Of a DNA stretch of 64,000 nt, positions 16,684-33,146 are shown in pieces. Origin of the DNA: Candidatus Latescibacterota bacterium (GTDB taxonomy: Bacteria > Krumholzibacteriota > Krumholzibacteriia > WVZY01); NCBI GenBank assembly GCA_963791045.1, contig CAWBQK010000013.1:52694-116693 (forward strand), given 5' to 3'. A program made the translations under genes and the position numbers. The notes below the pieces were generated by a model, which saw only the letters and a program-made list of their open reading frames with translations, was not told the DNA's origin and did not search any database. Position 1 is the stretch's first letter, and every line of letters begins with the position of its first letter.

Positions 16684-19386
16684 CTACTCGGCAATGATCC
16701 GAACTATAAAACTCACACCGGTTGCTGACGCTCCACCGGGTTCAAGAACTCCGGCGAGAACAAAACGCACATGCGTAACGTTCGCGTCGAAGTTGACCGG
16801 TGCACCGCCACCACCGCTGACCGGCGTGTACGTCCACGACGTACCGCCGTCATTCGAATACTGCGGCGTTACGCCGGTAATCGAAGCCGGTGGTGTGCCA
16901 GGGTCAACGGAACCGACACGGAACTGCGTGAACGCCGGAACCGCGTCTATGACCGCAAGGGTCTGAAGCGAATCCGTTCCGAGGTTCTGATAGTCCGTGG
17001 TGTATGTAAGCTCCGAGCCCGGTGTTTGCGGGCCCGCGGGAGCCACTGCCTTGGTGATCTGGAGATCACCGGCTGTTATCAACGTGATGTCGATCGCGTC
17101 GTCGCTCACGAGCGTGACGTTGCCTGTAGCGGTCAACGTGCCCGTCTCAACCGTTCCAACGGTCGCCGTACCGGGAACCATGACCTGAGCGATAACCGTA
17201 ACGCTGGCGCCGGGGTTGAGCGTTACATCGGCCAGAGGGTTGTTGAGCGTATCGTAGAACAGATACGTCCATCCCTGCGACGAGACGTACGACAGCGCGA
17301 ACGTATCGGCCACGTTACCGGTATTGGTTACCGTGTGCGTGTAGCGGATCGTCCCGCCGGGTGTCGTGCTCCCGTTCTGATCGGGAGAGAAATCAACCGC
17401 CGCAAAGTTGTTTATCGTAACTGTGTTGGCGATAGTGTCCAGAATGGTTCCGTTGGCAACCGAGGTCGCTGTAAACGACACGGGGTTGATACCCGGAGCC
17501 GCACCCGCAGGAACATCCACACGGGCGACGATATTTACCTCGGCTCCACCCGCGATCGGTCCCACCGATACCAGTGTCGTGGTTTCGCCGGGATCGAGCA
17601 CACCGTTGCCGTTGGGATCGTCGTAGAACGTGACGTTCCATCCCGCGGGCACCGCATAGGTGAGCGTGTAGGAATCGCTTCCCCCACCCGTATTAACAAC
17701 ATCGAGCGGGAAATCAACCGACGTCGCCGGGTCGGCGGGCAGATCCAACGGATTGTTGTCCGTGCCCGGACCGGCAAGGTAGTTACCGATGTCCACGCTG
17801 ACCGGCGTCACGTTGAGGACGCGATCAGTCGTAAGGTTGAACTCGGTTGGATCGATCGTCGACTGGGCACGGATAACCGCGTCAAACGGTCCGCCGGCAG
17901 CCTGGCTGCCCGGGATTACCAGTCGAACGATAATGTCGACACTGTCGCCCGGCGCAACGGGGCCCACATCGGGGAGTCCGTCAAAACCGGTATCGGCGAG
18001 CGGAGTCACGCCATCTGACTGGAGCAAAAGAACGCCCCAGGTGGCGGGAAGTGTCGACGCCGGATCGGTGAGAATATTGATCTGATCGGCGGCATTGCCG
18101 TCGTTTCTTACGGTATTGACGAAGTCCACGGTCGTGCCCGCATCGGCGTTGGCGAGAGTCTGGAGATCGTCGTTGTACAGGGGAGGCGTACCGGCACCGG
18201 CGTCACCGGCAGGACCGATTACGATGTCCGCGAGACCGCCGATGGTCACCAGCGCGTTATTCGAAACGATCGTTGTCGGATCCGGTGTCACGGCGGTGTT
18301 GTCGATATAGGTCACGGCCGCGGTGTTACCCAGTGAACCGGCGCCCATGCCGATCGGAACGGTCGCCTGATACACAAAGTTGTAACCCTGACCCGGAATG
18401 ATCGCGCCGTTGGTCACATAACCGACGGCAAGGTCGCCCGGCCCTGCTACGAGGCCCCAGTTCCATGTTTCGGGATCTCCAGCGGTCGACTCGCCGGCGG
18501 GAAGATAAAGAACCGTTCCACCCGCTGGCGTACCAAACGGCACACCGGAAATTGCGAGAGGATTTCCCGTCGAAGGATCGGTCGGAATAATATCCCAGAG
18601 CAACACACCGGTAAGACCAACGGAACCAACGGTTACGCCGTTCGCGTTGTTGTTACCCGTGTTTGAACCGGAAAGCGTGTAGGTTACCTGGTTGCCTTCG
18701 AATACGATCGCGGGCGCGGCGGCGAGATTGGCCGTCATTACCGCGTCGTTCACAACGTCGGTCCTGTGATAATTGCGTGTGTCGATCTGTGCCGCGTCTC
18801 CAACAGAGACACCGGTCACACCGACGTAAGCAAGTTCACCCGAAACGGCGGCCGCGGGCACTGTGTAGGCGACGATAACACTGATTGTCTGCCCGGCGGT
18901 GAGAATCCCCGTATTGCCCGAAATGCCCCCGGCGCTCAGAACGGGTTCACCAAGATCCACCATGCCGTTCGAGTTGAGATCGTGATAAATCGTGACATCG
19001 ACGTTGTTGAGCAACATTGTTGAATTCGCAACGTCAACATTGGGAGACAACGTAAAGTCATCGTCGTCATTACCCGTGTTGGTCAGATCGTATCTATAAT
19101 ATACGGTCATGCCGGGCAGTGCATTCTGAGCCATCGCCGGAGTCAGGGGAGGCGTTTCACCCGAATCATCGGGGAGAATCGACACACCAAACACCGGAAG
19201 AACGATGGTGATGACTTCATTTGATGTCGCGGAATAATTGTTCCCACCCATGTCCTGGTAGGTCGCAGATGACCGGTTCCGGATCTGCGTACCGGCAGGC
19301 GTTGCCTGCGCAAAGACAGTTGTTGCCGTGACCGCGACGATCAACAGCAACATCACGGGAAGGGTGATGTAGACTCGTCTACTCAT
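16684..19386 (-). CDS. secreted 900-aa surface protein with multiple Ig-like/DUF11 repeats and C-terminal DUF11 module
   Basis: Signal peptide (MLLLIVAVTATTVFAQA). Repeated YxDxNGNG.DPGE and TNTGN motifs. The C-terminus LTYTTDYQNLGTDSLQTLAVIDAVPAFTQF is DUF11. No T9SS CTD. Confidence 0.85.
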   Translation of the reverse strand: MSRRVYITLPVMLLLIVAVTATTVFAQATPAGTQIRNRSSATYQDMGGNNYSATSNEVITIVLPVFGVSILPDDSGETPPLTPAMAQNALPGMTVYYRYDLTNTGNDDDDFTLSPNVDVANSTMLLNNVDVTIYHDLNSNGMVDLGEPVLSAGGISGNTGILTAGQTISVIVAYTVPAAAVSGELAYVGVTGVSVGDAAQIDTRNYHRTDVVNDAVMTANLAAAPAIVFEGNQVTYTLSGSNTGNNNANGVTVGSVGLTGVLLWDIIPTDPSTGNPLAISGVPFGTPAGGTVLYLPAGESTAGDPETWNWGLVAGPGDLAVGYVTNGAIIPGQGYNFVYQATVPIGMGAGSLGNTAAVTYIDNTAVTPDPTTIVSNNALVTIGGLADIVIGPAGDAGAGTPPLYNDDLQTLANADAGTTVDFVNTVRNDGNAADQINILTDPASTLPATWGVLLLQSDGVTPLADTGFDGLPDVGPVAPGDSVDIIVRLVIPGSQAAGGPFDAVIRAQSTIDPTEFNLTTDRVLNVTPVSVDIGNYLAGPGTDNNPLDLPADPATSVDFPLDVVNTGGGSDSYTLTYAVPAGWNVTFYDDPNGNGVLDPGETTTLVSVGPIAGGAEVNIVARVDVPAGAAPGINPVSFTATSVANGTILDTIANTVTINNFAAVDFSPDQNGSTTPGGTIRYTHTVTNTGNVADTFALSYVSSQGWTYLFYDTLNNPLADVTLNPGASVTVIAQVMVPGTATVGTVETGTLTATGNVTLVSDDAIDITLITAGDLQITKAVAPAGPQTPGSELTYTTDYQNLGTDSLQTLAVIDAVPAFTQFRVGSVDPGTPPASITGVTPQYSNDGGTSWTYTPVSGGGGAPVNFDANVTHVRFVLAGVLEPGGASATGVSFIVRIIAE

Positions 19387-19396
19387 AGTCCTTACC

Positions 19397-19888
19397 TCAC
19401 TTGATTACCGTTCTGTACGTTACAGTGATGCCTTGTTTTGGCTGGACGGGCTCCGAGAGAGCCCAACGGAGATGCGTCACCATGTCCGGTGTTGCCTCCA
19501 CCAATTCTTCCTCGCCGTTCTCGTTCGTCTGTTTGACGAGAATCGGCCAGGCCTGGTACGTTTTTCCTCCATCGATGCTGTACTCCACGTCGCCCGTTTT
19601 GAGCTCGGTGGCTGACGGATGGACGAATTCGGTACCCAACGGGATTCCGTCCGTTATGAAAATATTCTGTATGGGCTGGTCGCCGGTGTTGGTGTAGGTC
19701 AACCGATATTCAATTGTATCGTTTGGCCTCGCGTTATCAGCGGGAAGAAAATCTTCCACTCCCTGGTCGGTAACCACCACCCGAAAAGCCTCGAGACTGC
19801 CCGCCAGATCCCCCCCGGCGGCAAATGCCATCGATGCGGTCAATCCGAGAACAAGCAGAAACACCGCAAAGAAGCGCTTCTCTATCAT
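19397..19888 (-). CDS. small (164 aa) secreted DUF11-domain protein, first gene of the surface operon
   Basis: ORF 19397..20101 trimmed to ATG 19888, which is preceded by the perfect RBS AAGGAGG. Signal peptide (FFAVFLLVLGLTASMAFAAG). TIEYRLTYTNTGDQPIQNIFITDGIPLGTEFV is DUF11. It lies 10 nt upstream of the next gene. Confidence 0.8.
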   Translation of the reverse strand: MIEKRFFAVFLLVLGLTASMAFAAGGDLAGSLEAFRVVVTDQGVEDFLPADNARPNDTIEYRLTYTNTGDQPIQNIFITDGIPLGTEFVHPSATELKTGDVEYSIDGGKTYQAWPILVKQTNENGEEELVEATPDMVTHLRWALSEPVQPKQGITVTYRTVIK

Positions 19889-20147
19889 AAAGAGCCTCCT
19901 TAAAAACTCCGGTCCGTGGATAATTTGAAACGTCGCGGCGAGGATCGATGACGTACCGAGGGGTAAGATTTCTTCCCCGCCTGTCCGGTCAGGGAGACAG
20001 ATAGCAAGGAGTGAACCACCTATGAGAAGTGTCAAGGAACGATGACACCTCATGAGAAATCCCGCGTCGCTGTGGGGCGACCGACGGCGGTTTCTCCCCA
20101 ATCACGGAACGACGGGGTAATTCAAGACGCAACACGAACGCGCAACC

Positions 20148-20164: not shown

Positions 20165-20235
20165 TTTCTGGCGAAGACACCCGGAACAGGCCGAAAAGTG
20201 TTGAATATTCTCCACCCAATGGCAATTATTTGGTC

Positions 20236-21300
20236 ATGGACTTACCATCGCGCGCATCAAGGTACAGGCTGGCAATAGTCCTGGTGGTGTCACTGGCGAC
20301 CGTGGCCTTCCATTACGGCCTCATCGTCAAGCCATCGGCGGGAGATGACGGATTTTTTCATGCGATACACGGGCGTCTCTGTTATATCCCGATCATCCTC
20401 GGCGCGATCTGGTTTGGGGTTCGCGGCGGCCTCGGAATCGCTCTTTTTATAACGGCGCTCACAATCCCATACGCCCGGTACGGCCCGCACGCCCAACACG
20501 GCGCGGCGATCGGCGAATACACCGAGATGATTTTCTATGTCGCGATCGGCCTCACGGCGGGGTTTCTTATCGAACTTCAAAGACGAGAACGTAAAAGGCG
20601 GGAGGAGATGGCCGACGAACTCGCCCGCCAGGAACACCTCTCATCGCTCGGGCAAATGGCCGCCGGTCTCGCCCATGAAATCAAAAACCCGCTCGGTTCG
20701 ATAAAAGGATCCGCCGAAGTCATTGGCGACGATTATCCCGAAGGCACGCGCAAACATGAAATCGTCGAAGTGCTTTCGAAGGAAACCGACAGGTTGAATC
20801 GCGTCGTGGAAGATTTCCTCAAATTCGCGCGGCCGCGGCCGATAAACAAAGAGATGCGCGGGTTGAACTTTCTGCTCGAGGAAGTCGTGTTGCAGATTGG
20901 AGTGGATGCAAACGCCCGCAACATCACAATCAAAAAAGACATCGACGTCGCACTTCCTGTGGCGCGGGTCGATCCCGAGAAAATGCGCCAGGTGTTTTTG
21001 AATATGCTGCTCAACGCCGTGAACGCGATGCCCGACGGGGGCACTATCCGTGTCGAAACCAAAGTGGACATCCGTGACGGCAAGAACGTCTTTCGCATCA
21101 CATTCATGGACGAGGGCGTCGGAATACCGCCCGAGGATGTCAAAAAAATATTCGATCCGTTTTTCACGCGGACGGACGGCGGGACGGGTCTTGGACTCTC
21201 GATTTCACACTCCATCGTCCAGGAACACGGCGGCCATATCGAGGTCGAACCCAACCACCCGCGGGGGACGTCGATTTCCGTTATCCTGCCCTTTAAATAA
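20236..21300 (+). CDS. sensor histidine kinase with membrane-embedded N-terminus (intramembrane-sensing type), HisKA + HATPase_c
   Basis: Four or five TM helices and no periplasmic domain. H-box LGQMAAGLAHEIKNPLGSIKG and N/G-box MLLNAVNAMPDGG...GTGLGLSISHSIV. ORF-track start 20230 is TTG. ATG at 20236. Confidence 0.9.
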   Translation: MDLPSRASRYRLAIVLVVSLATVAFHYGLIVKPSAGDDGFFHAIHGRLCYIPIILGAIWFGVRGGLGIALFITALTIPYARYGPHAQHGAAIGEYTEMIFYVAIGLTAGFLIELQRRERKRREEMADELARQEHLSSLGQMAAGLAHEIKNPLGSIKGSAEVIGDDYPEGTRKHEIVEVLSKETDRLNRVVEDFLKFARPRPINKEMRGLNFLLEEVVLQIGVDANARNITIKKDIDVALPVARVDPEKMRQVFLNMLLNAVNAMPDGGTIRVETKVDIRDGKNVFRITFMDEGVGIPPEDVKKIFDPFFTRTDGGTGLGLSISHSIVQEHGGHIEVEPNHPRGTSISVILPFK

Positions 21301-21311
21301 GAAAGCTGAGA

Positions 21312-22661
21312 ATGCCCAGGCCAACCATACTCATAGTCGATGATGACGCGAGCATCCGCAAAGTCCTCGGATTTATCCTCGAGGAGGCGGGCTATGCGAT
21401 TCGCACGGAATCGTCGGGCGCGGCGGCAATCGCGGCCATTGAGAGCAAACGGCCCGACCTCGTAATGACCGATATCAAGATGCCCGGGATGGACGGGATT
21501 ACGCTTCTCGGCGAAATTAAGAAAATCGACGACGGCATCCCCGTCATCGTGCTCACCGCGTTTGGCTCGGTGGAGACGGCCGTCGACGCCATGAAACTCG
21601 GGGCAATCGATTATCTCACGAAACCAATCAGCCGGGATGAGCTTACACTCACCGTCGAGAAAACGCTCCGGATACGACAACTCGAAAAAGAGAACGTGTC
21701 GTTAAAAGAATCTCTCGCCGACAAGTTCGATGTGGCGAACATCATCGGACACTCCCCCGCCATGCAAAGCGTATTTGAAATCGTCCGGAAGGTGGCGGCC
21801 ACGGACGCGTCGGTCCTGATAACCGGCGAAAGTGGAACCGGGAAGGAACTCATTGCAAGGGCAATTCACTTCAACTCCACCCGCAAGGATGCGCGGCTTG
21901 TCACGGTAAACTGCGCGGCGATTCCCGAGGACCTTCTTGAAAGTGAGCTTTTTGGGCATGTAAAGGGCGCGTTCACCGGAGCCATCAGGAAGAAGGACGG
22001 CAGGTTTCACCTGGCGCACAACGGGACCATTTTTCTCGACGAGATCGGATCGCTTCCCCGACCCCTCCAGGCAAAACTCCTTCGAGCGCTTCAGGAACAA
22101 GAAATCCAAAGGGTCGGCGAAGAAGAACCCACAACGGTCGACGTTCGTGTGATTTCAGCCACCAACCGTCCCCTGCCCGAGCTGATTCGCGACGGGGAAT
22201 TTCGCGACGATCTTTTTTACCGATTGAATGTCGTACCGGTCACCGTGCCACCGCTGCGTCAGCGCCGATCGGACATACCGCTTCTCGTCGATCACTTTAA
22301 GGGGGACGGAGGAAAGGTAACGTTCACCGCCTCGGCGCTCGCGGCGCTCGAGGAGTACGAATGGCCGGGAAACGTGCGCGAGCTGGAAAATTTTTGTGAA
22401 CGCATCGTGTTGATGTCAGGCTCGGGCACGATCGACGCCGCACCAGTACGGGAGCAGATCGAATTGATGAAAGCGGAACAAGCCCATATCGGATCACCGC
22501 AACAGGCAACGCTTCCCGAGGTGGAACGCCGCGCCGTGGTCGAAGCGCTTATCGACTGCAACTGGAACCAGTCGAAAGCCGCCCGCCGCCTCGGCATCCC
22601 ACGGCACGTTCTTCTCTATCGCATGAAGAAGTTCAACATCCACCGCGACCATTCCGACTAA
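21312..22661 (+). CDS. sigma-54-dependent response regulator, NtrC/AtoC family (REC-AAA+-Fis HTH)
   Basis: REC domain (LIVDDD...D at MTDIKMPGMDG). Sigma-54 activation AAA+ domain (GESGTGKELIARAIH, GAFTGA, ESELFGH). C-terminal HTH (NQSKAARRLGIPRHVLLYRMKK). Confidence 0.95.
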   Translation: MPRPTILIVDDDASIRKVLGFILEEAGYAIRTESSGAAAIAAIESKRPDLVMTDIKMPGMDGITLLGEIKKIDDGIPVIVLTAFGSVETAVDAMKLGAIDYLTKPISRDELTLTVEKTLRIRQLEKENVSLKESLADKFDVANIIGHSPAMQSVFEIVRKVAATDASVLITGESGTGKELIARAIHFNSTRKDARLVTVNCAAIPEDLLESELFGHVKGAFTGAIRKKDGRFHLAHNGTIFLDEIGSLPRPLQAKLLRALQEQEIQRVGEEEPTTVDVRVISATNRPLPELIRDGEFRDDLFYRLNVVPVTVPPLRQRRSDIPLLVDHFKGDGGKVTFTASALAALEEYEWPGNVRELENFCERIVLMSGSGTIDAAPVREQIELMKAEQAHIGSPQQATLPEVERRAVVEALIDCNWNQSKAARRLGIPRHVLLYRMKKFNIHRDHSD

Positions 22662-22732: not shown

Positions 22733-23812
22733 ATGAACAAAATCGAAATCCTCAACTGGAAAACCAAAGATCTGTCGACGGATGGACCCTTTGATTTCCG
22801 GCTCGACCGCGGACCGGCCGGGCTGACGGAAACCGAAAATGCGGGCTCTACCGGCGAGCGTCTTCCCATCGGGGTTCCGGCGAGCCCGCCGGCGCTTCTT
22901 GAGACAGACGCGGGTCACATTGTCATCCACGGACACAGGCAGATTGACGCGGCACTTTCCGAAGGCGCCGCGTCGATACCTTCAATCGTTTATCCGGCAG
23001 ACACGCCCAGACAAACTGTCGTCACCCTGGCGCTCGAACAGTGCGCCATCCAGGGCGCCGGCCACCCGAGAGAAGAGAATAAACACAGCGGCGGCGCTCT
23101 TTCGGGCATCGAAAAGATCCTGGCGATTTACAAAACGAGTTTGTACGCAGGCGGCGGCCTTGCGGCGGCAGGCGAGCCGCTAAAATTGGACACGCCGGTG
23201 TCCCCCCCCGACTGGATCGTTCCATTGTATGCAAATCTGCTCGGACGGCGGGTCTCCAAGCCATACCTCGCAAGGACCTGCACGGCTCTTGCATTCCCGG
23301 CGTCCGAACTTCTCGCACTCGCGCGTTTCAATTTTACGATAGACCAGATCGCATCGATTCTCGTTCTCTCGCCGAAAGAGCGTGCCGCGGTCCTCGCCCT
23401 TCTCCGTGCCACCGCGTTTACGACGGCCGACCTCAGACAACTCGTCCGGCTCCTGATCCTGGCGCGCGGACGCGCAAAATTCGATCTCGAGCCGACGGCG
23501 GCGGCTGCGGCGAAGAACCAAAAGGGCGGTTCGGCGATCACCCGGGCAATTGAGATGGAGATTTATCCGGCGTTAACGGCCAGGAAACGGCGAATAGAGA
23601 CCAGTCTCCGGGAGATGAGGCTGCCGAATCGGTTACGGATCAAGCCACCGGAAAACCTAGAAGGGGATTCGTTTTCGTGTTACTTTAGGTTTTCTCGGCT
23701 CGAGGAACTTGCCGGTTATGTGGAATTACTCGGGCGGGCGGTGCAGGACGGCAGTGCGGGGAAGCTCCTCGATCTGTTGAATGACGGTGATGCGGACACG
23801 GAGGCACAATGA
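22733..23812 (+). CDS. hypothetical protein with weak ParB/sulfiredoxin-like N-domain
   Basis: ORF 22685..23812. Start chosen at MNKIEIL. HIVIHGHRQIDAALSEGAASIPSIVY resembles the ParB N-domain core. The rest is Ala/Leu-rich helical. Confidence 0.5.
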   Translation: MNKIEILNWKTKDLSTDGPFDFRLDRGPAGLTETENAGSTGERLPIGVPASPPALLETDAGHIVIHGHRQIDAALSEGAASIPSIVYPADTPRQTVVTLALEQCAIQGAGHPREENKHSGGALSGIEKILAIYKTSLYAGGGLAAAGEPLKLDTPVSPPDWIVPLYANLLGRRVSKPYLARTCTALAFPASELLALARFNFTIDQIASILVLSPKERAAVLALLRATAFTTADLRQLVRLLILARGRAKFDLEPTAAAAAKNQKGGSAITRAIEMEIYPALTARKRRIETSLREMRLPNRLRIKPPENLEGDSFSCYFRFSRLEELAGYVELLGRAVQDGSAGKLLDLLNDGDADTEAQ

Positions 23813-26730
23813 GGCGTTTGTTCTTTCTACTGATTCTGGCGGCGGTCACTACCCCCTCACTGGCGGGAGCGCAGGAGTATTTCCAGCAAACCGTCGCCTA
23901 CAAAATAAACGTTCGGCTCGACCCAAAAGAACACATGCTCACCGGGACCGAGGAGATCGTCTATACAAACAACTCTCCGGATACGCTCAAGGAGTTTTAC
24001 CTCCATTTGTACCCGAACGCGTTCAAGTCAAAAGACACGGCGTTGATGACCGATGTACGCAAACGCTTCAACAGAACGATCTCCGACCTCCCCAAGAAAT
24101 ACAGAAGCTACCTGAACATCTATGACGTCCTGATCGACACAACACAAGTCTCTCCAATAATTGACGATACCATCGCCAAGTTCTTCCTGCCCCGTCCTCT
24201 GGCGCCGGGGGCAACCATGAAGATCTCGCTCCGATTCGAAGAAAAGGTTCGAAGGCACGCCGGTCGAGCCGGGTACCGCAAGGAGCACTATGACATCGCC
24301 CAGTGGTACCCAAAAGTCGTCGTCTATGATGAGAAGCGATTCCATCCGGACAAGTTCCGGTTGGGAGAATTCTACGGCGAGTTCGCGGACTATGATGTCT
24401 CGATCGATATTCCGATAAAGTACGTCATCGCCGCCACGGGAGTGCTCGAAGAGGGTGACGCAGGTTGGACGTACAACCCCGTGAAAGGCGACAGACGAAA
24501 GGGAGAGCGCGGGCAGGACAAAAAGTTCAAAACGGTCCGTTTCCGCGCCGAAAACGTCCACGATTTCGCGTGGAGCGCGAATCCGCGATTCAGCGTCCAG
24601 ACACAAACACTCAATGATGTCGAAATAATGAGCTTTTTCGACCGGGGCAACAAGTCGTGGAGAGACTCCACGCTGGCGCACGGAGTTCGCGCCGTCGAGT
24701 GGCTCTCAGAGAGGGTCGGGCTGTACCCGTATCCGCAGCTTTCCCTGGTCCAGGGACTGTTGCGCGGGGGGATGGAGTACCCGATGCTCGTCATGGACGG
24801 TCACGTGAGCGAATCGCTCGTCGTTCACGAAGTCGGCCACAACTGGTTTTACGGCGCTCTGGCGAATAACGAAAGAAACTCGGCATGGCTCGACGAAGGA
24901 CTGACAACATTCCAGACCGATTGGTACCTGACCGAACGTTACGGCAAATGGGGCAATAAGAAGAAGTGGAACCTGTACGAAAAAATCACGCCTCAATACA
25001 CACTCGTCGAAAAACAGAGGCGACGGGTTCTTCCCCTCATGCGCAGAGGATATTCCGAGCGCCTATCCAAGCCGGCGGAGAATTACAAACACGATTACGC
25101 GGCGATGGTTTACGGCAAAGGCTCGTTGATGTTCAACGCGCTGCGTTATGTCGTGGGCGAAGAGGATTTCGAAGAAATACTCAAAACTTACTATGAACGC
25201 TGGAAATTCAAACACGTCAACGAGGAGAGATTCCAGGCGGTGTGCGAAGAAGTCAGCGGCATGGACCTCAATCTGTTCTTCGAGCAGTGGATCCACACGA
25301 TCAAGGTTTGTGATTACAATCTCTCCAAAATGAAAACCACGGTCAATGAAAGCGGCGACGGCTACGTAACGGAGATAACCATTTTCAGACTCGGCGAAGT
25401 TGTACTGCCGCTCAATCTCAAGATTACGTTCCGCGATGGAACCACACAAACAACGCGAATCGAAGGCCGGCTGCGGACTATCAAAAAAACTTACTCGTTT
25501 CCGTCGAAGCCAAAGAAAGCGGCGCTCAACCCGGAAAACGAGATCCTCGACATTAACATGGCGGACAACTTCCTGCCGCGGCGCTACTCGCTTCAGATCG
25601 ACTGGCCAAACAACCGATACTACCCGGAGGATTCGTACCAAATCAGGCATCACCCGTATGTTTGGTACAACGATGTGGACGGCCCAAGAGTCGGTCTTCA
25701 TTTCAAGGGAAGCAACGCCGAGTGGAGCCGCCGCTTCAAATTGGGATTGTACTACGGCGTGGACAGCGGCCGGCTTGATGTCGCCGCCAAGTGGATACGT
25801 CCCTCGTCCATTTTCGGCACGCACACATTCGGCATTTTGTCCGGTTACAAACTTGAAGGCCGCCAGGACATAAACGTTGAACTCGCGTATCGCCGTCGAA
25901 AAGAACTGTCGCGTCCGCCGACTCACAATTTCGCGATCGGCATGAACTACCACGAACTCCGGCGCTCGCAGTACATCTCCAACCCGGAACAGTACCAGGA
26001 AAACTCGGACGTCGCGCCGTACATAAATTACCAGGTCGACCCGCAGTTCGATCTCTTCTCGACCGACCTCGACTTCGGCCTGCGGTTCGGACGAGAGTGG
26101 TTCGGCGGCCGATCTAAGTACACCCGGTTCAACAGTTCGGTTGGCTTGAAATCACGCCCCGAGCTCTCTCGCTTCGACACGCGTTTTCGGATGTTTTTTG
26201 GTGTCGTGGATGCGGAATCCCCGTATCAGCAGAAGTTCTATCTTGCCGGCGGCGGCCCTCTTGCCGAGGAAAAGGTATTCTTCCTCCGAAGCCCCGGCGC
26301 CATCCCCAAGGATCTCAATTACCACGAGCCCGGACACGGCAACCTCAGAGGTTATTTCACGGGGAATTTTGGCGTGAATCGTCTGTTCTCGCTCAATCTT
26401 GAAATGGGCGGCAAGGTGCCCCTGATCTCGAGCAGCAAAAAGAAATTTCTCGGCGAGATTAAGGTATATGCTTTTGGAGATGCCGGGTGGGTTATGGATT
26501 CAACAAATCCCATCGGGACGAGCGAACGGATTGGAGATCTCGTCAACGATGGGATCTTTGATGACACACTTGCCGATGCGGGGATCGGTTTTACTCTCGC
26601 GCGGGATCTTCCCTTCTGGAAAATGCTGCTGAGACTCGACATCCCCTTCTGGGTGGGGCAGCCAAAGATAAACGGCGAAACCCAACAGACCCAACACCGC
26701 TACGTTTTCAGTCTCAAAACATCATTCTAA
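23809..26730 (+). CDS. secreted M1-family zinc metallopeptidase domain fused to a C-terminal Omp85-family beta-barrel
   Basis: Signal peptide (MRRLFFLLILAAVTTPSLAGA). Gluzincin motif HEVGHNWFYG...NSAWLDEG (HExxH-x18-E). The C-terminal ~420 aa have amphipathic strands and an Omp85-like KFYLAGGG...LRGY motif, and end ...YVFSLKTSF. Confidence 0.8.
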   Translation: MRRLFFLLILAAVTTPSLAGAQEYFQQTVAYKINVRLDPKEHMLTGTEEIVYTNNSPDTLKEFYLHLYPNAFKSKDTALMTDVRKRFNRTISDLPKKYRSYLNIYDVLIDTTQVSPIIDDTIAKFFLPRPLAPGATMKISLRFEEKVRRHAGRAGYRKEHYDIAQWYPKVVVYDEKRFHPDKFRLGEFYGEFADYDVSIDIPIKYVIAATGVLEEGDAGWTYNPVKGDRRKGERGQDKKFKTVRFRAENVHDFAWSANPRFSVQTQTLNDVEIMSFFDRGNKSWRDSTLAHGVRAVEWLSERVGLYPYPQLSLVQGLLRGGMEYPMLVMDGHVSESLVVHEVGHNWFYGALANNERNSAWLDEGLTTFQTDWYLTERYGKWGNKKKWNLYEKITPQYTLVEKQRRRVLPLMRRGYSERLSKPAENYKHDYAAMVYGKGSLMFNALRYVVGEEDFEEILKTYYERWKFKHVNEERFQAVCEEVSGMDLNLFFEQWIHTIKVCDYNLSKMKTTVNESGDGYVTEITIFRLGEVVLPLNLKITFRDGTTQTTRIEGRLRTIKKTYSFPSKPKKAALNPENEILDINMADNFLPRRYSLQIDWPNNRYYPEDSYQIRHHPYVWYNDVDGPRVGLHFKGSNAEWSRRFKLGLYYGVDSGRLDVAAKWIRPSSIFGTHTFGILSGYKLEGRQDINVELAYRRRKELSRPPTHNFAIGMNYHELRRSQYISNPEQYQENSDVAPYINYQVDPQFDLFSTDLDFGLRFGREWFGGRSKYTRFNSSVGLKSRPELSRFDTRFRMFFGVVDAESPYQQKFYLAGGGPLAEEKVFFLRSPGAIPKDLNYHEPGHGNLRGYFTGNFGVNRLFSLNLEMGGKVPLISSSKKKFLGEIKVYAFGDAGWVMDSTNPIGTSERIGDLVNDGIFDDTLADAGIGFTLARDLPFWKMLLRLDIPFWVGQPKINGETQQTQHRYVFSLKTSF

Positions 26731-26797: not shown

Positions 26798-27910
26798 CTA
26801 CCCTAGTATGTCTTTGACCGCTGCAACGACCTCATCGACCATCTCGTCGGTGAGCTCGGGGTACATCGGAAGCGAAACGATTTCCTTGGCCGCTTTCTCC
26901 GCCACCGGAAACGCGCCTTCGCCAATCCCAAGGTCCTCGTAGGCCTTCTGCAGATGAAGCGGCACGGGATAATGGATCCCGGCGGCGATTCCGCGTTCGC
27001 CAAGCCCGTTGAGCAGCTTGTCCCGATCCGGCGTCCTTACAACATAGAGATGATAAACATGGTACCGTCCGGGGCCTTCCCTGACCGGACGAACCGGCCC
27101 GTCGGCAAATCCTTCGTCGTATCGTTTCGCGCGGCTGCGGCGGCTTTCGTTCCAACCGTCAATGTAACCCAGCTTGACATCGAGAACCGCCGCCTGGATT
27201 CCATCCAGACGGTAATTAAAACCCACGTGTGAATGTGTGTACTTGTCGAAACGGCCGTGATTGCCCAGGCGCCGCATAAAGTCCGCCTGGTCGGCATCAT
27301 CGGTCACGATCATACCCGCGTCCCCGTACGCGCCGAGATTTTTGCCCGGATAAAAACTGTAACAGGTGAGGTCACCCAAAAGAGCCCTCCGGCTCCCATT
27401 GAGATTCGCGCCGTGGGCCTGAGCGGCATCGGCAACGACCTTTATGGAGTGACGCGATGCGATATCCATAATCGCCTCCATGTCCGCGCTCTGGCCGTAG
27501 AGGTGGACGGGAACAATCGCCTTGGTCTTGTCCGTGATCGCCGCCTCGACTTGTTCCGGATCGATCGTCAGCGTATCGTCGGTTACGTCCACAAGAACCG
27601 GGCGCGCGCCGGTGTGTGAAATCGCCTCCGTTGTCGCAATAAACGTGTTGGTCGCCGTGATGACTTCATCGCCGGGGCCAATGCCGAGCGTGGTCAGCGC
27701 CAGGTGAAGCGCCGACGTACCGCTGCTCGTTCCGACGCCGTATCCGGCCTCGACATATTTCGCATAATTCTTCTCGAGAGTTTCCAGCTTCTTGCCACCG
27801 ACGAATGCCGTGTTCTCGATAATTTGCGCGATCGCGGGATCGACCTCGCTCTTAATGCTCTGGTACTGGGCTTTGAGATCGACAAACGGGATTCCCATGA
27901 CTGGTATCAC
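26798..27910 (-). CDS. DegT/DnrJ/EryC1/StrS-family PLP-dependent sugar aminotransferase
   Basis: Family-wide conservation (FVDLKAQY, GTSSGTSALHLAL, ...FYPGKNLGAYGDAG, HYPVPLHLQ). Confidence 0.9.
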   Translation of the reverse strand: MIPVMGIPFVDLKAQYQSIKSEVDPAIAQIIENTAFVGGKKLETLEKNYAKYVEAGYGVGTSSGTSALHLALTTLGIGPGDEVITATNTFIATTEAISHTGARPVLVDVTDDTLTIDPEQVEAAITDKTKAIVPVHLYGQSADMEAIMDIASRHSIKVVADAAQAHGANLNGSRRALLGDLTCYSFYPGKNLGAYGDAGMIVTDDADQADFMRRLGNHGRFDKYTHSHVGFNYRLDGIQAAVLDVKLGYIDGWNESRRSRAKRYDEGFADGPVRPVREGPGRYHVYHLYVVRTPDRDKLLNGLGERGIAAGIHYPVPLHLQKAYEDLGIGEGAFPVAEKAAKEIVSLPMYPELTDEMVDEVVAAVKDILG

Positions 27911-28127: not shown

Positions 28128-29300
28128 ATGTCCGCAGAACGAAGAACGATGCTGATATTGTTTGCCGTGGCGCTGGGATTGCGAGTTCTTTACGGCGCAT
28201 TTCTCGCCAACCAACCCGACCTCGTTCCCAGCCCCATAACTTCTGACCTGAGTTATGCGAAGGAAATAGCCACGGGAACTCGATGGTTCAACGAGCCGTT
28301 GTCACCGCGATCGCCAGGGTACCCCCTGGTTCTGGCGTCATTCTACGTCGTTTCGGCCAAGCATTTCTGGCTGATGATATTTCTCCAGGCAATCCTCGGG
28401 GCGTTGACGGTCGTTCTTCTCTACCGGATAGGGACGAGAATGCTGGGCCCGGTCTTCGCGGTGGTCGCCGCGCTCTGGTTCGCGTTCCATGTCTTTCATA
28501 TGCATGTCGGGCATTTCTTCCACAGGGACATCCTGAGTGTTTTCCTTTTGACGCTCCTCGTGTACATACTGACACGGCCATTCAAGCGGATGTGGTACGG
28601 ACTCATCGCTGGAATCATCTTCGCGGCGCTCGCGCATGTCGACCCGCAGTTTCTTCTCCTCCTCCCCGTGTTCGCAATTTTTATTCTGTTCAAATCACGG
28701 CACGGGTTTCTCAACATTCAGTATCTCTTTTTGTTTTTCTTCGCCGCGATCGTAATTTCGCTGCCGTGGACCATGAGGAACAACACCATCTACGGGCAAC
28801 CCATCCCCATTGGACTCGAAGCCAGAAAATACCTGCGACCGGCCAAATCCGTCGTGACAAATCCCGACAAGGGTTTGTCCGAACTCGAAAGCAAGATCAC
28901 GCGGGCGTCACGTGCCCGGCTCATCGAGAGAAACACCGTCGAGTTCTGGCGTTTCGCGAAATTCGAAGGGGACGTTGTGGAGTCCGCCGATTCAACGTTT
29001 GGCGGAGGGCTGGAGCCGGCGTGGTCGTTCCGGCACAATCTCGTCAGCATCCTCAATTACGGGATTCTGCTACCGTTCTTCGCCTTGGGGCTCGTGCTGG
29101 TCGTCCGCGACCGGAACAGAACCGGGCTCATGCTCGCTACGGTCACGGTCGCCTTTTTTGTCATGAGGATGTATCTCGGCGGGGATGAACGCATAAGGCT
29201 CGCCGTCGACCCATTTATTGTGATTCTGGCTTTCTACGGAATCTCATGGATGATCGGCACGCTGTGGAAACCCAGGTCGGCCGAAGACACCCAGGACTAG
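28128..29300 (+). CDS. GT-C fold membrane glycosyltransferase domain protein (ArnT/PMT-like), standalone homolog of the N-domains of the 47283/49439 paralogs
   Basis: Multi-TM. Motifs are shared with the TPR-fused paralogs (..LPWTMRNNTIYGQPIPI vs ILPVIIRNYVVGRDFVPI). Confidence 0.75.
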   Translation: MSAERRTMLILFAVALGLRVLYGAFLANQPDLVPSPITSDLSYAKEIATGTRWFNEPLSPRSPGYPLVLASFYVVSAKHFWLMIFLQAILGALTVVLLYRIGTRMLGPVFAVVAALWFAFHVFHMHVGHFFHRDILSVFLLTLLVYILTRPFKRMWYGLIAGIIFAALAHVDPQFLLLLPVFAIFILFKSRHGFLNIQYLFLFFFAAIVISLPWTMRNNTIYGQPIPIGLEARKYLRPAKSVVTNPDKGLSELESKITRASRARLIERNTVEFWRFAKFEGDVVESADSTFGGGLEPAWSFRHNLVSILNYGILLPFFALGLVLVVRDRNRTGLMLATVTVAFFVMRMYLGGDERIRLAVDPFIVILAFYGISWMIGTLWKPRSAEDTQD

Positions 29301-30854: not shown

Positions 30855-33146
30855 TCAAGGGTTTGTCTTCTTTGAACCCAACTCCTGGCGGACTCTCTGC
30901 AGGTTGCTCCGCGCCCGCCGGTTGTCCGGGTCGAGCTCGATTACTTCGAGGAATTCCCGCTCCGCATCCTCGAACCTGCCGACCGTCGCGTAGACCGAAC
31001 CGAGTGTCAGATGGCCGTTCGAGTATTTCGGCTCAACGCCGATGGCCATTTCACCATATTTTATCGATTCGTCGAAACGGCCCAGCTCCATGTTCATGAT
31101 CGCGAGGTTATTCATTGCATAAACATCATCCTTCTTCAGCGCCAGCGCTTTCTTGAAGGATTGTTCGGCAAGCGAAAATTGTTTCAGCCGCCCGTAACAC
31201 ACACCAATGTTATTCAACGCGCTCGGGAAGTTCGGATTCAACGCAAGGGCCTTTTTGAACTCCTCGATCGCCTCCGCATACTTGCCCTGCTCCTGGTATC
31301 TCTGCCCAAGATTGTTGTATGCATCCGGATTCTCGGGAGTGATGTACCCCAACGCTTCAAGCTTTTTGAGCGTTTCCTCATCCGCCGCGCCCGCGCCTTC
31401 CGGGACGTCACCCGTCGCGCGATTACGATTGAGTGTCGCGACGATCGTGGTATTCACCTCGTCGGCCAGCGCCGGTTCGAAAGCGTCGATAAGCACTTTT
31501 CCCGGCATGTCGGCGGCCTGCGGCAGACCCTCGAGTGCGAGAAAAGTGGGAAGAACATCGAGAACCGTTGCCCCATCGATCTTGTACCCCTTGCGAATCC
31601 CCGGGCCGTACATAGCGATGATACCGTTGAGCTGGTGCCAAAAAGCCGCGTGTCCGCCTCCAATCTGGCCACCGAGTTTTGGCCTGCCTTGTCCGCTTTT
31701 GAAACCATGGTCTGACGCGATCACCAAAACCGTCTCATCGTCACACATCTCGATAAACTCGCCGATGATCCCGTCCTGATAAATATAAGTCTGAAGCATC
31801 GCGTCTTTGTACTTTGCGAAGTCCGCCTCCGTGACCCATGACAGACGCGGCGGCGCGAAGTTCATAAAGAGATGGCCGACGGCGTCGCACCATTCGAAGT
31901 ACACCCCGAGAAAATCCGGCTGGTCGGCGGCAAGCAGATGTTTCGCGATGTTGTAATAAGACCTCGCCGACGCGTAGAGCATGATCATGTTGTTAACCGG
32001 GTTTTCAGGGTCGAACGCGACAACCTTGTTCTTGTCGAAGGTTTCGCGGTCGACATGGAGAAACCGTCTGAAATCCTCGTAATCTACGTCGGCGCTTTTG
32101 ACGATCAAATGGGACATCTCGTCGACCCTGTCGGCGGGCGACACGCTTCCCGGGGCGAGCTCGTCGCTTTCCCCCGCGTCCGCATAGGCGAGGTATCCGA
32201 CCCGGTCCGTGACCATCACGCCGTTGATCTCTTCGGCGGGATACGATGCCAGCCAACCGACGACATCCGCGCGGCGGCCGTGATCTCCAAAAATATTCCA
32301 GAGGGCATCGACCTTTCGGTACATGCGCGTGATCGGCATCCTCTTCCCCGTCTCTGGGTCGGTGACGGTGAAGTTGAGAATTCCGTGGTCCTCCGGAAGC
32401 TTCCCGGTTGCTATCGACGTCCAGATAAGAGGCGAGAGCAACGGTTCGATCGACCGTAGCCGGCCGGACGCGCCGCCTTCCAAAATCTTTTTGAAGTTGG
32501 GGAGAAATCCGGCCTCGATAAGCGGATCGATGATTTCCCAATCTCCGCCATCGACTCCCACAAAAATAATTTTTCTGAGCGGCTTTTCGGCAACGTTGAA
32601 AGTAACCCCTTCACCCGTCCCCGCAGTGACATCCCATGTGTCGACACGGAACCCATCCACGCTGATCCCAACTTTGCCGAGATCGGTTTTGATTTCGCGG
32701 AGCACGCCATTGACAAAATCATCCGGCGTTGCGATCGCCGGACCTGGGTATTCGGCAAGATTGATTTCAACGGATTCCCGGATCGACTCGGACAAACCCC
32801 GCTGCAAATCGGCTCCGTAACTTTTGTACAAGAACGCTCCCGAATCATCTTTGACGTTGAGTCGAAGTTCGAGCGCGACATTCGCTCGGCCGCCATCACG
32901 GGTCAAACCGGAATACGTCGACTCCGGAGGAAAACGCATTTCCACGGCACCCACTGGGTAAACGGCAAACGCCTGCGAAAACGGAAGGACAATATTAAAC
33001 CCGGGGCCATACTGCTTGGCCGCACCCGCCCCATCAATCCGGACCGCCTGATGCCCTTCGGGAACCCGTTTGACGACAAGCGCGGAGAGGATGGTAATCA
33101 CGGCGACCGCAACCAGCGAGAAAACAATGAATAAGCGTTTTTGCAT
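30855..33146 (-). CDS. alkaline-phosphatase-superfamily (type I phosphodiesterase/nucleotide pyrophosphatase-like) protein with C-terminal TPR repeats
   Basis: N-terminal TM anchor. AlkP-core motifs (IIFVGVDGGDWE..., ASDHGF). Five or more TPR repeats at the C-terminus (AYNNLGQRYQEQGKYAEAIEEFKKALALNP...). Confidence 0.8.
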   Translation of the reverse strand: MQKRLFIVFSLVAVAVITILSALVVKRVPEGHQAVRIDGAGAAKQYGPGFNIVLPFSQAFAVYPVGAVEMRFPPESTYSGLTRDGGRANVALELRLNVKDDSGAFLYKSYGADLQRGLSESIRESVEINLAEYPGPAIATPDDFVNGVLREIKTDLGKVGISVDGFRVDTWDVTAGTGEGVTFNVAEKPLRKIIFVGVDGGDWEIIDPLIEAGFLPNFKKILEGGASGRLRSIEPLLSPLIWTSIATGKLPEDHGILNFTVTDPETGKRMPITRMYRKVDALWNIFGDHGRRADVVGWLASYPAEEINGVMVTDRVGYLAYADAGESDELAPGSVSPADRVDEMSHLIVKSADVDYEDFRRFLHVDRETFDKNKVVAFDPENPVNNMIMLYASARSYYNIAKHLLAADQPDFLGVYFEWCDAVGHLFMNFAPPRLSWVTEADFAKYKDAMLQTYIYQDGIIGEFIEMCDDETVLVIASDHGFKSGQGRPKLGGQIGGGHAAFWHQLNGIIAMYGPGIRKGYKIDGATVLDVLPTFLALEGLPQAADMPGKVLIDAFEPALADEVNTTIVATLNRNRATGDVPEGAGAADEETLKKLEALGYITPENPDAYNNLGQRYQEQGKYAEAIEEFKKALALNPNFPSALNNIGVCYGRLKQFSLAEQSFKKALALKKDDVYAMNNLAIMNMELGRFDESIKYGEMAIGVEPKYSNGHLTLGSVYATVGRFEDAEREFLEVIELDPDNRRARSNLQRVRQELGSKKTNP

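Follow-up and report, generated by a model that had tools for sequence, protein, structure and literature searches.

A widespread protein family joining an M1-type zinc peptidase to an Omp85-superfamily barrel, putatively an aminopeptidase anchored in the outer membrane

The window analysed here is a 64,000-nucleotide stretch of contig CAWBQK010000013.1 (positions 52,694 to 116,693, forward strand; assembly GCA_963791045.1) from a Candidatus Latescibacterota bacterium, and all coordinates below count from its first letter. On its plus strand lies a gene for a protein that joins a zinc peptidase of family M1 to an Omp85-type outer membrane barrel. A preliminary description, made from the letters alone, had proposed a single 973-residue signal-peptide protein with a gluzincin active site in its first ~500 residues and an Omp85 barrel in its last ~420, and had likened the whole to a type Vd autotransporter with a protease passenger. 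The single protein was borne out by an intact open reading frame (ORF) and a readable Sec signal. The gene and the parts of its product are the following, with the source of each assignment in brackets; models were made with AlphaFold2 (AF2).

23809..26730 (stop codon included), plus strand: M1 peptidase-Omp85 fusion gene, complete, 973 residues (ORF list and translation)
23809..23871, plus strand: Sec signal peptide, residues 1-21, predicted cleavage A-G-A/Q (read from sequence)
23890..24642, plus strand: M1 domain I, N-terminal beta domain, residues 28-278 (AF2 model)
24652..25293, plus strand: M1 catalytic thermolysin-like domain II, helical, residues 282-495 (AF2 model)
24766..24780, plus strand: G320-G-M-E323-Y324, a variant of the GxMEN exopeptidase motif (read from sequence)
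24826..24897, plus strand: zinc/catalytic motif H340-E341-x-x-H344-(18 residues)-E363 (read from sequence)
25111..25113, plus strand: Y435 in V-Y-G-K-G, transition-state-stabilising catalytic Tyr (alignment to 7v9n)
25315..25527, plus strand: six-strand beta domain, residues 503-573 (71 residues; AF2 models)
25528..25635, plus strand: conserved linker NPxNEIxD...DWPNNxYYPED, residues 574-609 (36 residues; alignment A1, described below, and models)
25636..26727, plus strand: 16-stranded Omp85-type beta-barrel, residues 610-973 (364 residues; AF2 models, Foldseek and orthologue Pfam)
26209..26379, plus strand: loop 6 between strands 11 and 12, residues 801-857 (AF2 model)
26473..26487, plus strand: FxDxG lid-lock, F889-G-D891-A-G893, on strand 13 (residues 883-895; model and motif)
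26698..26727, plus strand: strand 16 with a beta-signal-like end, R964-Y-V-F-S-L-K-T-S-F973 (read from sequence)

The start codon of the ORF, an ATG, overlaps the stop of the gene before it (ATGA), a GGAGG Shine-Dalgarno sequence lies 6 nucleotides 5' of the ATG, and an identical protein (P0001) is found in public assemblies. Its N-terminus, MRRLFFLLILAAVTTPSLAGA|QE, has the form of a Sec-type signal with A-x-A at positions -3/-1, and all family members have an N-terminus of this kind, after which comes a conserved Y(F/W)QQ. In the full-length model, which was computed with 39 homologues as input and reached a mean predicted local distance difference test score (pLDDT) of 89.3 and a predicted template modelling score (pTM) of 0.86, the signal region is a detached low-confidence helix (helix at 2-13, pLDDT <50 at 12-21). 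The signal peptide thus shows the 973-residue product to be a protein predicted for export. Scans for sigma-54 promoters downstream of the neighbouring sigma-54-activator gene gave matches below chance and no credible one upstream of the fusion gene, scans for sigma-70 promoters and terminators gave matches at or below chance, and no second copy or paralogue was found within the window. The possibility of using a C479-C501 disulfide as a marker of the compartment was discarded since the pair is not conserved, both cysteines occurring in 22 of 71 members.

Conservation was read from two sets: an alignment, A1, of 39 full-length orthologues with 42-62% identity to the window protein, and a wider set of 71 full-length family members, each from a different genome, with 29-62% identity. 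The Pfam profile Peptidase_M1 (PF01433) matches residues 335-494 with 64.9 bits against a cut-off of 27.7, and the same profile was found in all 39 members of A1 and in 9 of 9 divergent representatives. Residue-level alignment pairs HEVGH, WLDEG and VYGKG of the window protein with HEMAH, WLNES and TYAKG of 7v9n, a solved alanine aminopeptidase. The HExxH-18-Glu motif, the catalytic Tyr, the profile match and the fold of domains I and II were all found, and they place the N-terminal half in family M1; the gluzincin site of the preliminary description is therefore real, and it is conserved in all 71 members. When the family profile was compared with the sequences in the PDB, only M1 enzymes appeared among the 60 matches listed, the best being 6a8z (M1dr), and neither the Pfam scan nor the fold search returned a patatin match in the N-terminal half. 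NCBIfam equivalogs for aminopeptidase N and leukotriene A4 (LTA4) hydrolase gave weak, sub-threshold matches only, and the fusion protein is therefore orthologous to no named enzyme.

The exopeptidase motif deviates from the canonical GAMEN in reading GGMEY, with the Glu kept and the Asn replaced by Tyr, and M322, E323 and Y324 are each present in 71/71 members. H340, E341, H344, E363, Y435 and E187 are likewise invariant; E187 belongs to an invariant block in domain I, G186-E187-F-Y-G-E191, and could serve as a second ligand of the N-terminus of the substrate. The motif Glu binds the substrate N-terminus in M1 enzymes (bioRxiv preprint 10.1101/2023.05.30.542994). Because this Glu is kept and the catalytic residues are invariant, we predict that the enzyme half is an active aminopeptidase, and for an enzyme with GGMEY we infer that exopeptidase rather than endopeptidase action is to be expected.

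The C-terminal half is an Omp85-superfamily barrel, an assignment that draws on orthologues, fold and motifs and not on a direct match of a hidden Markov model (HMM). Four independent lines lead to it. First, the Pfam Omp85 profile (PF01103) scores above its cut-off in 14 of the 39 A1 orthologues, for example with 31.6 bits over model positions 9-307 of 325 in P0004 and with 47.7 bits in P0111; the profile check proposed in the preliminary description thus succeeded for relatives and failed for the window protein itself. An NCBIfam scan of the window protein gave no Omp85 or POTRA match. Second, 16 barrel strands were obtained in both the full-length model and a model of the C-terminal part. 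Third, in a Foldseek comparison of the C-terminal model with the PDB the top 50 matches were all TamA, Sam50 or BamA (E down to 2e-9, probability 1.0), and the fold search with the full-length model agrees with this picture. Fourth, both lid-lock motifs stand at the sites expected for them, namely (L/M)RG(W/Y) on extracellular loop 6 and FxDxG on strand 13 (PMC11358297), with residues that are 83-99% conserved in the 71 members. Loop 6 comprises 57 residues and holds KFYLAGGG (809-816) as well as N845-L-R847-G848-Y849; in the latter, R847 is found in 70/71, G848 in 64/71 and an aromatic residue at 849 in 70/71 members, while the F, D and G of FxDxG are found in 70/71, 67/71 and 59/71. With a conservation of 41% against 28% for the whole barrel, loop 6 is the best-conserved barrel part. 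The chain ends in F, I, L or W in 66 of 71 members, and R964 is invariant in A1. The barrel with its KFYLAGGG...LRGY motif and terminal F, as first described, was thus confirmed; its length was not, as it measures 364 residues rather than ~420, preceded by the 36-residue linker and the 71-residue beta domain. We regard the identities of the two domains, M1 and Omp85, as close to certain, and both halves are under purifying selection.

Between enzyme and barrel the preliminary description had looked for a POTRA-like fold at residues ~500-570. POTRA domains have a beta-alpha-alpha-beta-beta topology. Residues 503-573, however, consist of six strands and no helix in both the full-length and the C-terminal model, and no Pfam POTRA match was found in the window protein or in its C-terminus alone. 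The protein is, as modelled, without a POTRA domain, and residues 503-573 are not one. In HMM comparisons with tricorn factor F3 and PepN, the aligned region continues into residues 508-551. A stand-alone 591-residue M1 peptidase is encoded two genes upstream of the fused gene in CP070758 (Gemmatimonadota; L003:5193-6968); as called it has no signal peptide, and it is 34% identical to residues 30-574 of the window protein, the beta domain included. This barrel-less paralogue is possibly a relative of the donor of the fusion. Because the F3 and PepN alignments and the paralogue extend through this region, residues 503-573 are most likely the counterpart of the M1 beta-sandwich domain III. In ordinary M1 enzymes a helical domain IV caps the active site; if residues 503-573 are domain III, the barrel would therefore stand in place of domain IV. 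The linker that follows has invariant residues in A1 (N577, I579, D581, N587, P590 and P600) and a pLDDT of 92-94 in the full model, compared with 50-75 when the M1 domains are omitted, which suggests that it packs against the enzyme half.

The fusion is found far beyond the window. Its closest relatives come from metagenome-assembled genomes (MAGs) of Latescibacterota and Krumholzibacteria, and a word-indexed search returned more than 100 full-length (~970 residues) relatives with 42-65% identity. A scan of one genome per species gave at least 565 matching stretches, of which the best 80 were used for taxa and extent: the match reaches residue 937 or beyond in 74 of them, and their hosts are Latescibacterota, Krumholzibacteria, KSB1, Marinimicrobia/Neomarinimicrobiota, Gemmatimonadales, Caldithrix (Calditrichota) and Bacteroidota-labelled MAGs, that is, the Fibrobacterota-Chlorobiota-Bacteroidota (FCB) group and its neighbours. 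When the barrel half alone was used in an exhaustive HMM search, the matches numbered 1026 cluster representatives (clustering at 50% identity), 460 of them with E<=1e-10. Complete proteins among the best 150 of these matches have 950-1070 residues with the match at the C-terminus, five short matches that were examined proved to be fragments opening inside the M1 domain, and the Pfam M1 profile was found in 9/9 divergent representatives. From the length pattern and these nine representatives it follows that the barrel clade is essentially always fused to M1. Public databases, where they name such proteins at all, list them under automatic names like "M1 family metallopeptidase" and "BamA/TamA family outer membrane protein". 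Our literature search found no description of an M1-Omp85 fusion, which, given its thin coverage of subscription journals, is absence of evidence only. The earlier statement that M1 was not known in this arrangement therefore stands as far as papers are concerned, but the arrangement is not rare: it constitutes a widespread, uncharacterised Omp85 subfamily, both halves of which are already recognisable to annotation pipelines.

Two side observations concern the distribution. Two M1-Omp85 paralogues are present in some genomes (L003/L079 in CP070758, L036/L057 in JADHVV01 and L038/L045 in CBFDBN01). A full M1-Omp85 gene is also found on contig DATKWS010000059.1 (L029), which was assigned to a "Patescibacteria group bacterium", probably through a binning error; Patescibacteria are usually considered to have no outer membrane.

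On which side of the outer membrane the enzyme sits can be approached from the barrel. In the model the long loops (L4 with 16 residues, L6 with 57, L7 with 24 and L8 with 16) all lie opposite the N-terminus of strand 1, while the turns on the side of that N-terminus have 3-13 residues. In all solved Omp85 proteins known to us, the strand-1 N-terminus and the parts preceding it are in the periplasm (or the intermembrane space). For PlpD, the type Vd prototype, it was shown in 2024 that the enzyme domain is kept in the periplasm, docked under the barrel (PMC11116518). Because of the strand parity, the position of the long loops and the PlpD precedent, the balance tips slightly towards a model in which the fusion would be an outer membrane-anchored, periplasm-facing aminopeptidase whose active site, without domain IV, would be open to longer peptides.

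Our working model is as follows. The register of loop 6 would fix the parity of strand 1 as in solved Omp85 proteins, so that the enzyme would stay on the periplasmic face, and the short conserved linker would hold it against the barrel rim; that this linker is confidently modelled only with the M1 domains present was counted in favour of such a tether. In the membrane-tethered aminopeptidase, E323 of GGMEY and E187 would bind the free N-terminus of the substrate, H340, H344 and E363 would hold the zinc, E341 would activate the water and Y435 would stabilise the transition state. Without a capping domain IV, the active site should admit longer peptides or unfolded chains, and the enzyme would presumably trim peptides that enter the periplasm or arise there, close beneath the outer membrane. 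The barrel would mainly be an anchor and, since the lid-lock of BamA/TamA is kept, probably closed to the outside.

The gene neighbourhood was compared by ORF clustering over 84 loci. Around the fusion gene the window holds the following.

16684-19386, minus strand: 900-residue protein with DUF11/DUF7507 (CLIPPER-type) repeats
19397-20101, minus strand: 234-residue protein with DUF11/DUF7507 (CLIPPER-type) repeats
20230-21300, plus strand: histidine kinase (HisKA/HATPase_c)
21312-22661, plus strand: sigma-54-activator response regulator
22733-23812 (longest ORF from 22685), plus strand: ParB-like 359-residue protein with a GHRQ/GHRR motif and no Pfam match
26798-27910, minus strand: DegT/DnrJ/EryC1 aminotransferase, convergent to the fusion gene
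28128-29300, plus strand: PMT_2 (ArnT-like) glycosyltransferase, adjoining the DegT gene
30855-33146, minus strand: 763-residue protein with Band_7, Phosphodiest and TPR Pfam matches

Four genes follow one another on the same strand, in the order histidine kinase, sigma-54-type response regulator, ParB-like protein and fusion. The kinase and regulator pair is upstream of the fusion gene in 8-9 related loci. An orthologue of the ParB-like protein, 39% identical, occupies the same position in Latescibacterota CP070631; the gene was rejected as a partner, being conserved in only 5 of the 84 loci and absent in Gemmatimonadota. On the other side, the DegT gene is downstream in 12 loci; in the window, glycosyltransferase genes also come after the fusion gene, and the DegT/PMT_2 neighbourhood looks like one for envelope-glycan modification. 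A different arrangement was seen in Marinimicrobia (L049-L082), where in 15-18 loci a conserved same-strand run precedes the fusion gene, some 3 kb upstream of the match: first a patatin-like protein with GGGxRG...GTSAGS, next a membrane protein of the DsbD kind, and then a TlpA-like thioredoxin lipoprotein with WCGPC. No TamB-like or TpsA-like partner was seen among the neighbours examined. The neighbours are related to the envelope yet specific to single lineages, and no substrate can be read from them. Apart from this, the two DUF11/DUF7507 proteins are conserved neighbours in Latescibacterota, followed in L002 by a 1971-residue OmpA-domain protein, and the combination of Pfam matches in the 763-residue protein is unusual.

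Several points weigh against a periplasm-facing, barrel-anchored aminopeptidase. The Pfam Omp85 profile gives no match on the window protein, even at E<=10 on its C-terminus alone, and a profile of the C-terminal 474 residues found no relevant chain among the PDB sequences, only a chance match to AvtR (E=0.39). Synteny is lineage-specific, with no family-wide conserved neighbour among the 84 loci that would point to a substrate or pathway. The side proposed for the enzyme is deduced from strand parity and loop positions, the linker is in principle long enough to thread the barrel lumen, and activity and location are predictions for all family members. Finally, a role as anchor only leaves the strong conservation of the lid-lock and of loop 6 unexplained.

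That the linker could pass through the lumen is one reason to consider surface display, in which the barrel, in the manner of type V secretion, would move the M1 domain to the cell surface, where it would serve, attached or released, as an ecto-aminopeptidase for peptide scavenging. The hosts belong to FCB-group lineages, which feed on peptides. The original type Vd model (PMC6555100) likewise has an enzyme followed by a 16-strand Omp85 barrel. PlpD itself, however, does not export its enzyme domain (PMC11116518). The cargo would be a folded three-domain enzyme of ~550 residues and would have to pass, without the help of a POTRA domain, a barrel in which the LRGY/FxDxG lid-lock is kept and whose long L4, L6 and L7 resemble the closing dome of BamA/TamA. 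Together with the finding that no conserved cleavage or release feature was detected, this makes export unlikely in our view.

The conservation of loop 6 and the lid-lock above the rest of the barrel would find a place in a second alternative, envelope quality control. Here an insertase-like lateral seam of the barrel would catch stalled or misfolded outer membrane proteins (OMPs) by beta-augmentation and the tethered M1 domain would degrade them in the periplasm, as a covalent analogue of the partnership between BepA and the BAM complex. Strand 16 is short and its end is of low confidence in the models, and some neighbours are envelope-related (DegT, PMT_2 and glycosyltransferases in Latescibacterota, DsbD and TlpA in Marinimicrobia), but no evidence of lateral opening was obtained and the synteny is weak and lineage-specific. 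Heinz and Lithgow proposed periplasmic quality control for the Omp85-"Metallo" group (PMC4104836). An aminopeptidase takes single residues off free N-termini and would be poor at clearing whole proteins, and we consider this explanation rather improbable.

Still less can be said for a coupled conduit, with the barrel as a peptide channel and the docked enzyme trimming peptides as they come in. The pTM of 0.86 points to enzyme and barrel being fixed relative to each other, and the linker is ordered only with the enzyme present; yet a lid-lock shuts an Omp85 barrel towards the outside, part of the lumen is occupied by loop 6, none of the solved Omp85 proteins is known to be a nutrient channel, and no transport gene is conserved beside the fusion gene. 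This explanation is, in our estimate, very unlikely. An artefact, in which an error of sequencing, assembly or frame had merged adjacent genes for an M1 peptidase and a POTRA-less Omp85 protein, found no support, although a barrel-less M1 paralogue exists elsewhere, and its probability is negligible: the same uninterrupted frame of ~970 residues is present in 70 other genomes and hundreds of protein clusters, the junction (503-573 and linker) is conserved and confidently modelled, and a reading frame conserved across phyla rules out an assembly or frameshift error.

The periplasm-facing aminopeptidase thus remains the reading we favour, and it would leave the barrel as little more than an anchor. 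A bolder proposal, which we hold with considerable reservation, is that the family forms an Omp85 functional class of its own, so far unrecognised, whose barrel would either export the entire M1 aminopeptidase without POTRA or gate unfolded OMP or peptide substrates to the enzyme. If the export version were true, it would amount to a new type V-like route, and part of the "leucine aminopeptidase" ecto-activity that is bound to cells of abundant uncultured lineages, Marinimicrobia among them, would gain a molecular identity; the gating version would amount to a covalently coupled quality-control or uptake machine. Interest in the family would rise if the barrel proves to do either.

Independently of this choice, a second, unrelated enzyme on a POTRA-less Omp85 barrel across phyla shows that the scaffold has been reused repeatedly, and the family offers a natural test case for whether enzyme-fused Omp85 barrels serve as anchors, exporters or gates. 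The known roles of Omp85 proteins are those of insertase (BamA, TamA, Sam50, Toc75) and translocase (TpsB). To our knowledge, PlpD is the only enzyme-Omp85 fusion that has been studied, and it recently overturned the accepted model of its secretion. The carriers of the M1 fusion (Marinimicrobia, Latescibacterota, KSB1 and Gemmatimonadota) are abundant uncultured degraders of organic matter, and an outer membrane-bound aminopeptidase would bear on how cell-associated peptidase activity is organised in sediments and the deep ocean. The current automatic names each cover just one half of the fusion.

Compared with known systems, the protein comes closest in layout to PlpD and FplA, with which it shares a single polypeptide, a signal peptide, an N-terminal hydrolase and a C-terminal 16-strand Omp85 barrel, and probably also an enzyme domain on the periplasmic face (PMC11116518). 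It differs from them in that its enzyme is an M1 zinc peptidase rather than a patatin-like lipase, in having a six-strand beta domain and a 36-residue linker instead of a POTRA domain or helical linker, and in its hosts, which are candidate phyla of the FCB group. Type Vd is defined by a 16-strand barrel, one POTRA and a lipase passenger (PMC6555100); the barrel is present here, the single POTRA and the lipase passenger are not, so that two of the three structural features are missing. With the lid-lock kept and the enzyme of PlpD itself staying in the periplasm, the initial comparison to a type Vd-like protein with a protease passenger is only partly supported and could not be maintained in its first form. 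Type Va autotransporters, with a 12-strand barrel and a helical pore linker (PMC6555100), were likewise dismissed given the 16-strand Omp85-like barrel.

The barrel itself resembles BamA, TamA and Sam50 in its 16 strands, its long L6 with (L)RG(Y), FxDxG on strand 13 and the long L4, L6 and L7. Unlike them, the fusion has no POTRA domain, carries a peptidase and gives no sign of insertase activity, and its barrel is only 11-15% identical to theirs in sequence. BamA has a contiguous FYAGG...VRGF motif, whereas L6 of the fusion contains ~28 extra residues, including a short helix, between FYLAGGG and NLRGY.

On the enzyme side, the two-domain aminopeptidase M1dr from Deinococcus radiodurans (6a8z) also lacks a helical cap, but it is a soluble protein of 474 residues without domain III or a membrane part. 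LTA4 hydrolase (LTA4H) and ColAP are other M1 enzymes in which domain IV is lacking or shortened; the window protein differs in having GGMEY in place of the canonical GAMEN.

Among Omp85 proteins, Heinz and Lithgow distinguished ten subfamilies, none of them with M1; POTRA, which some authors regard as a hallmark of Omp85 proteins, is absent from noNterm and "Metallo", the latter combining PF00149 with Omp85 and being conserved at genus level only (PMC4104836). The fusion shares with both an Omp85 barrel behind an N-terminal region that is not POTRA, and a periplasmic role was proposed for the Metallo hydrolase (PMC4104836). Membership in the Metallo subfamily was rejected, as the fusion gave no PF00149 match, carries PF01433 instead and is spread over several phyla. 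The fusion thus belongs both to peptidase family M1 and to the Omp85 superfamily, but fits none of the ten described Omp85 subfamilies.

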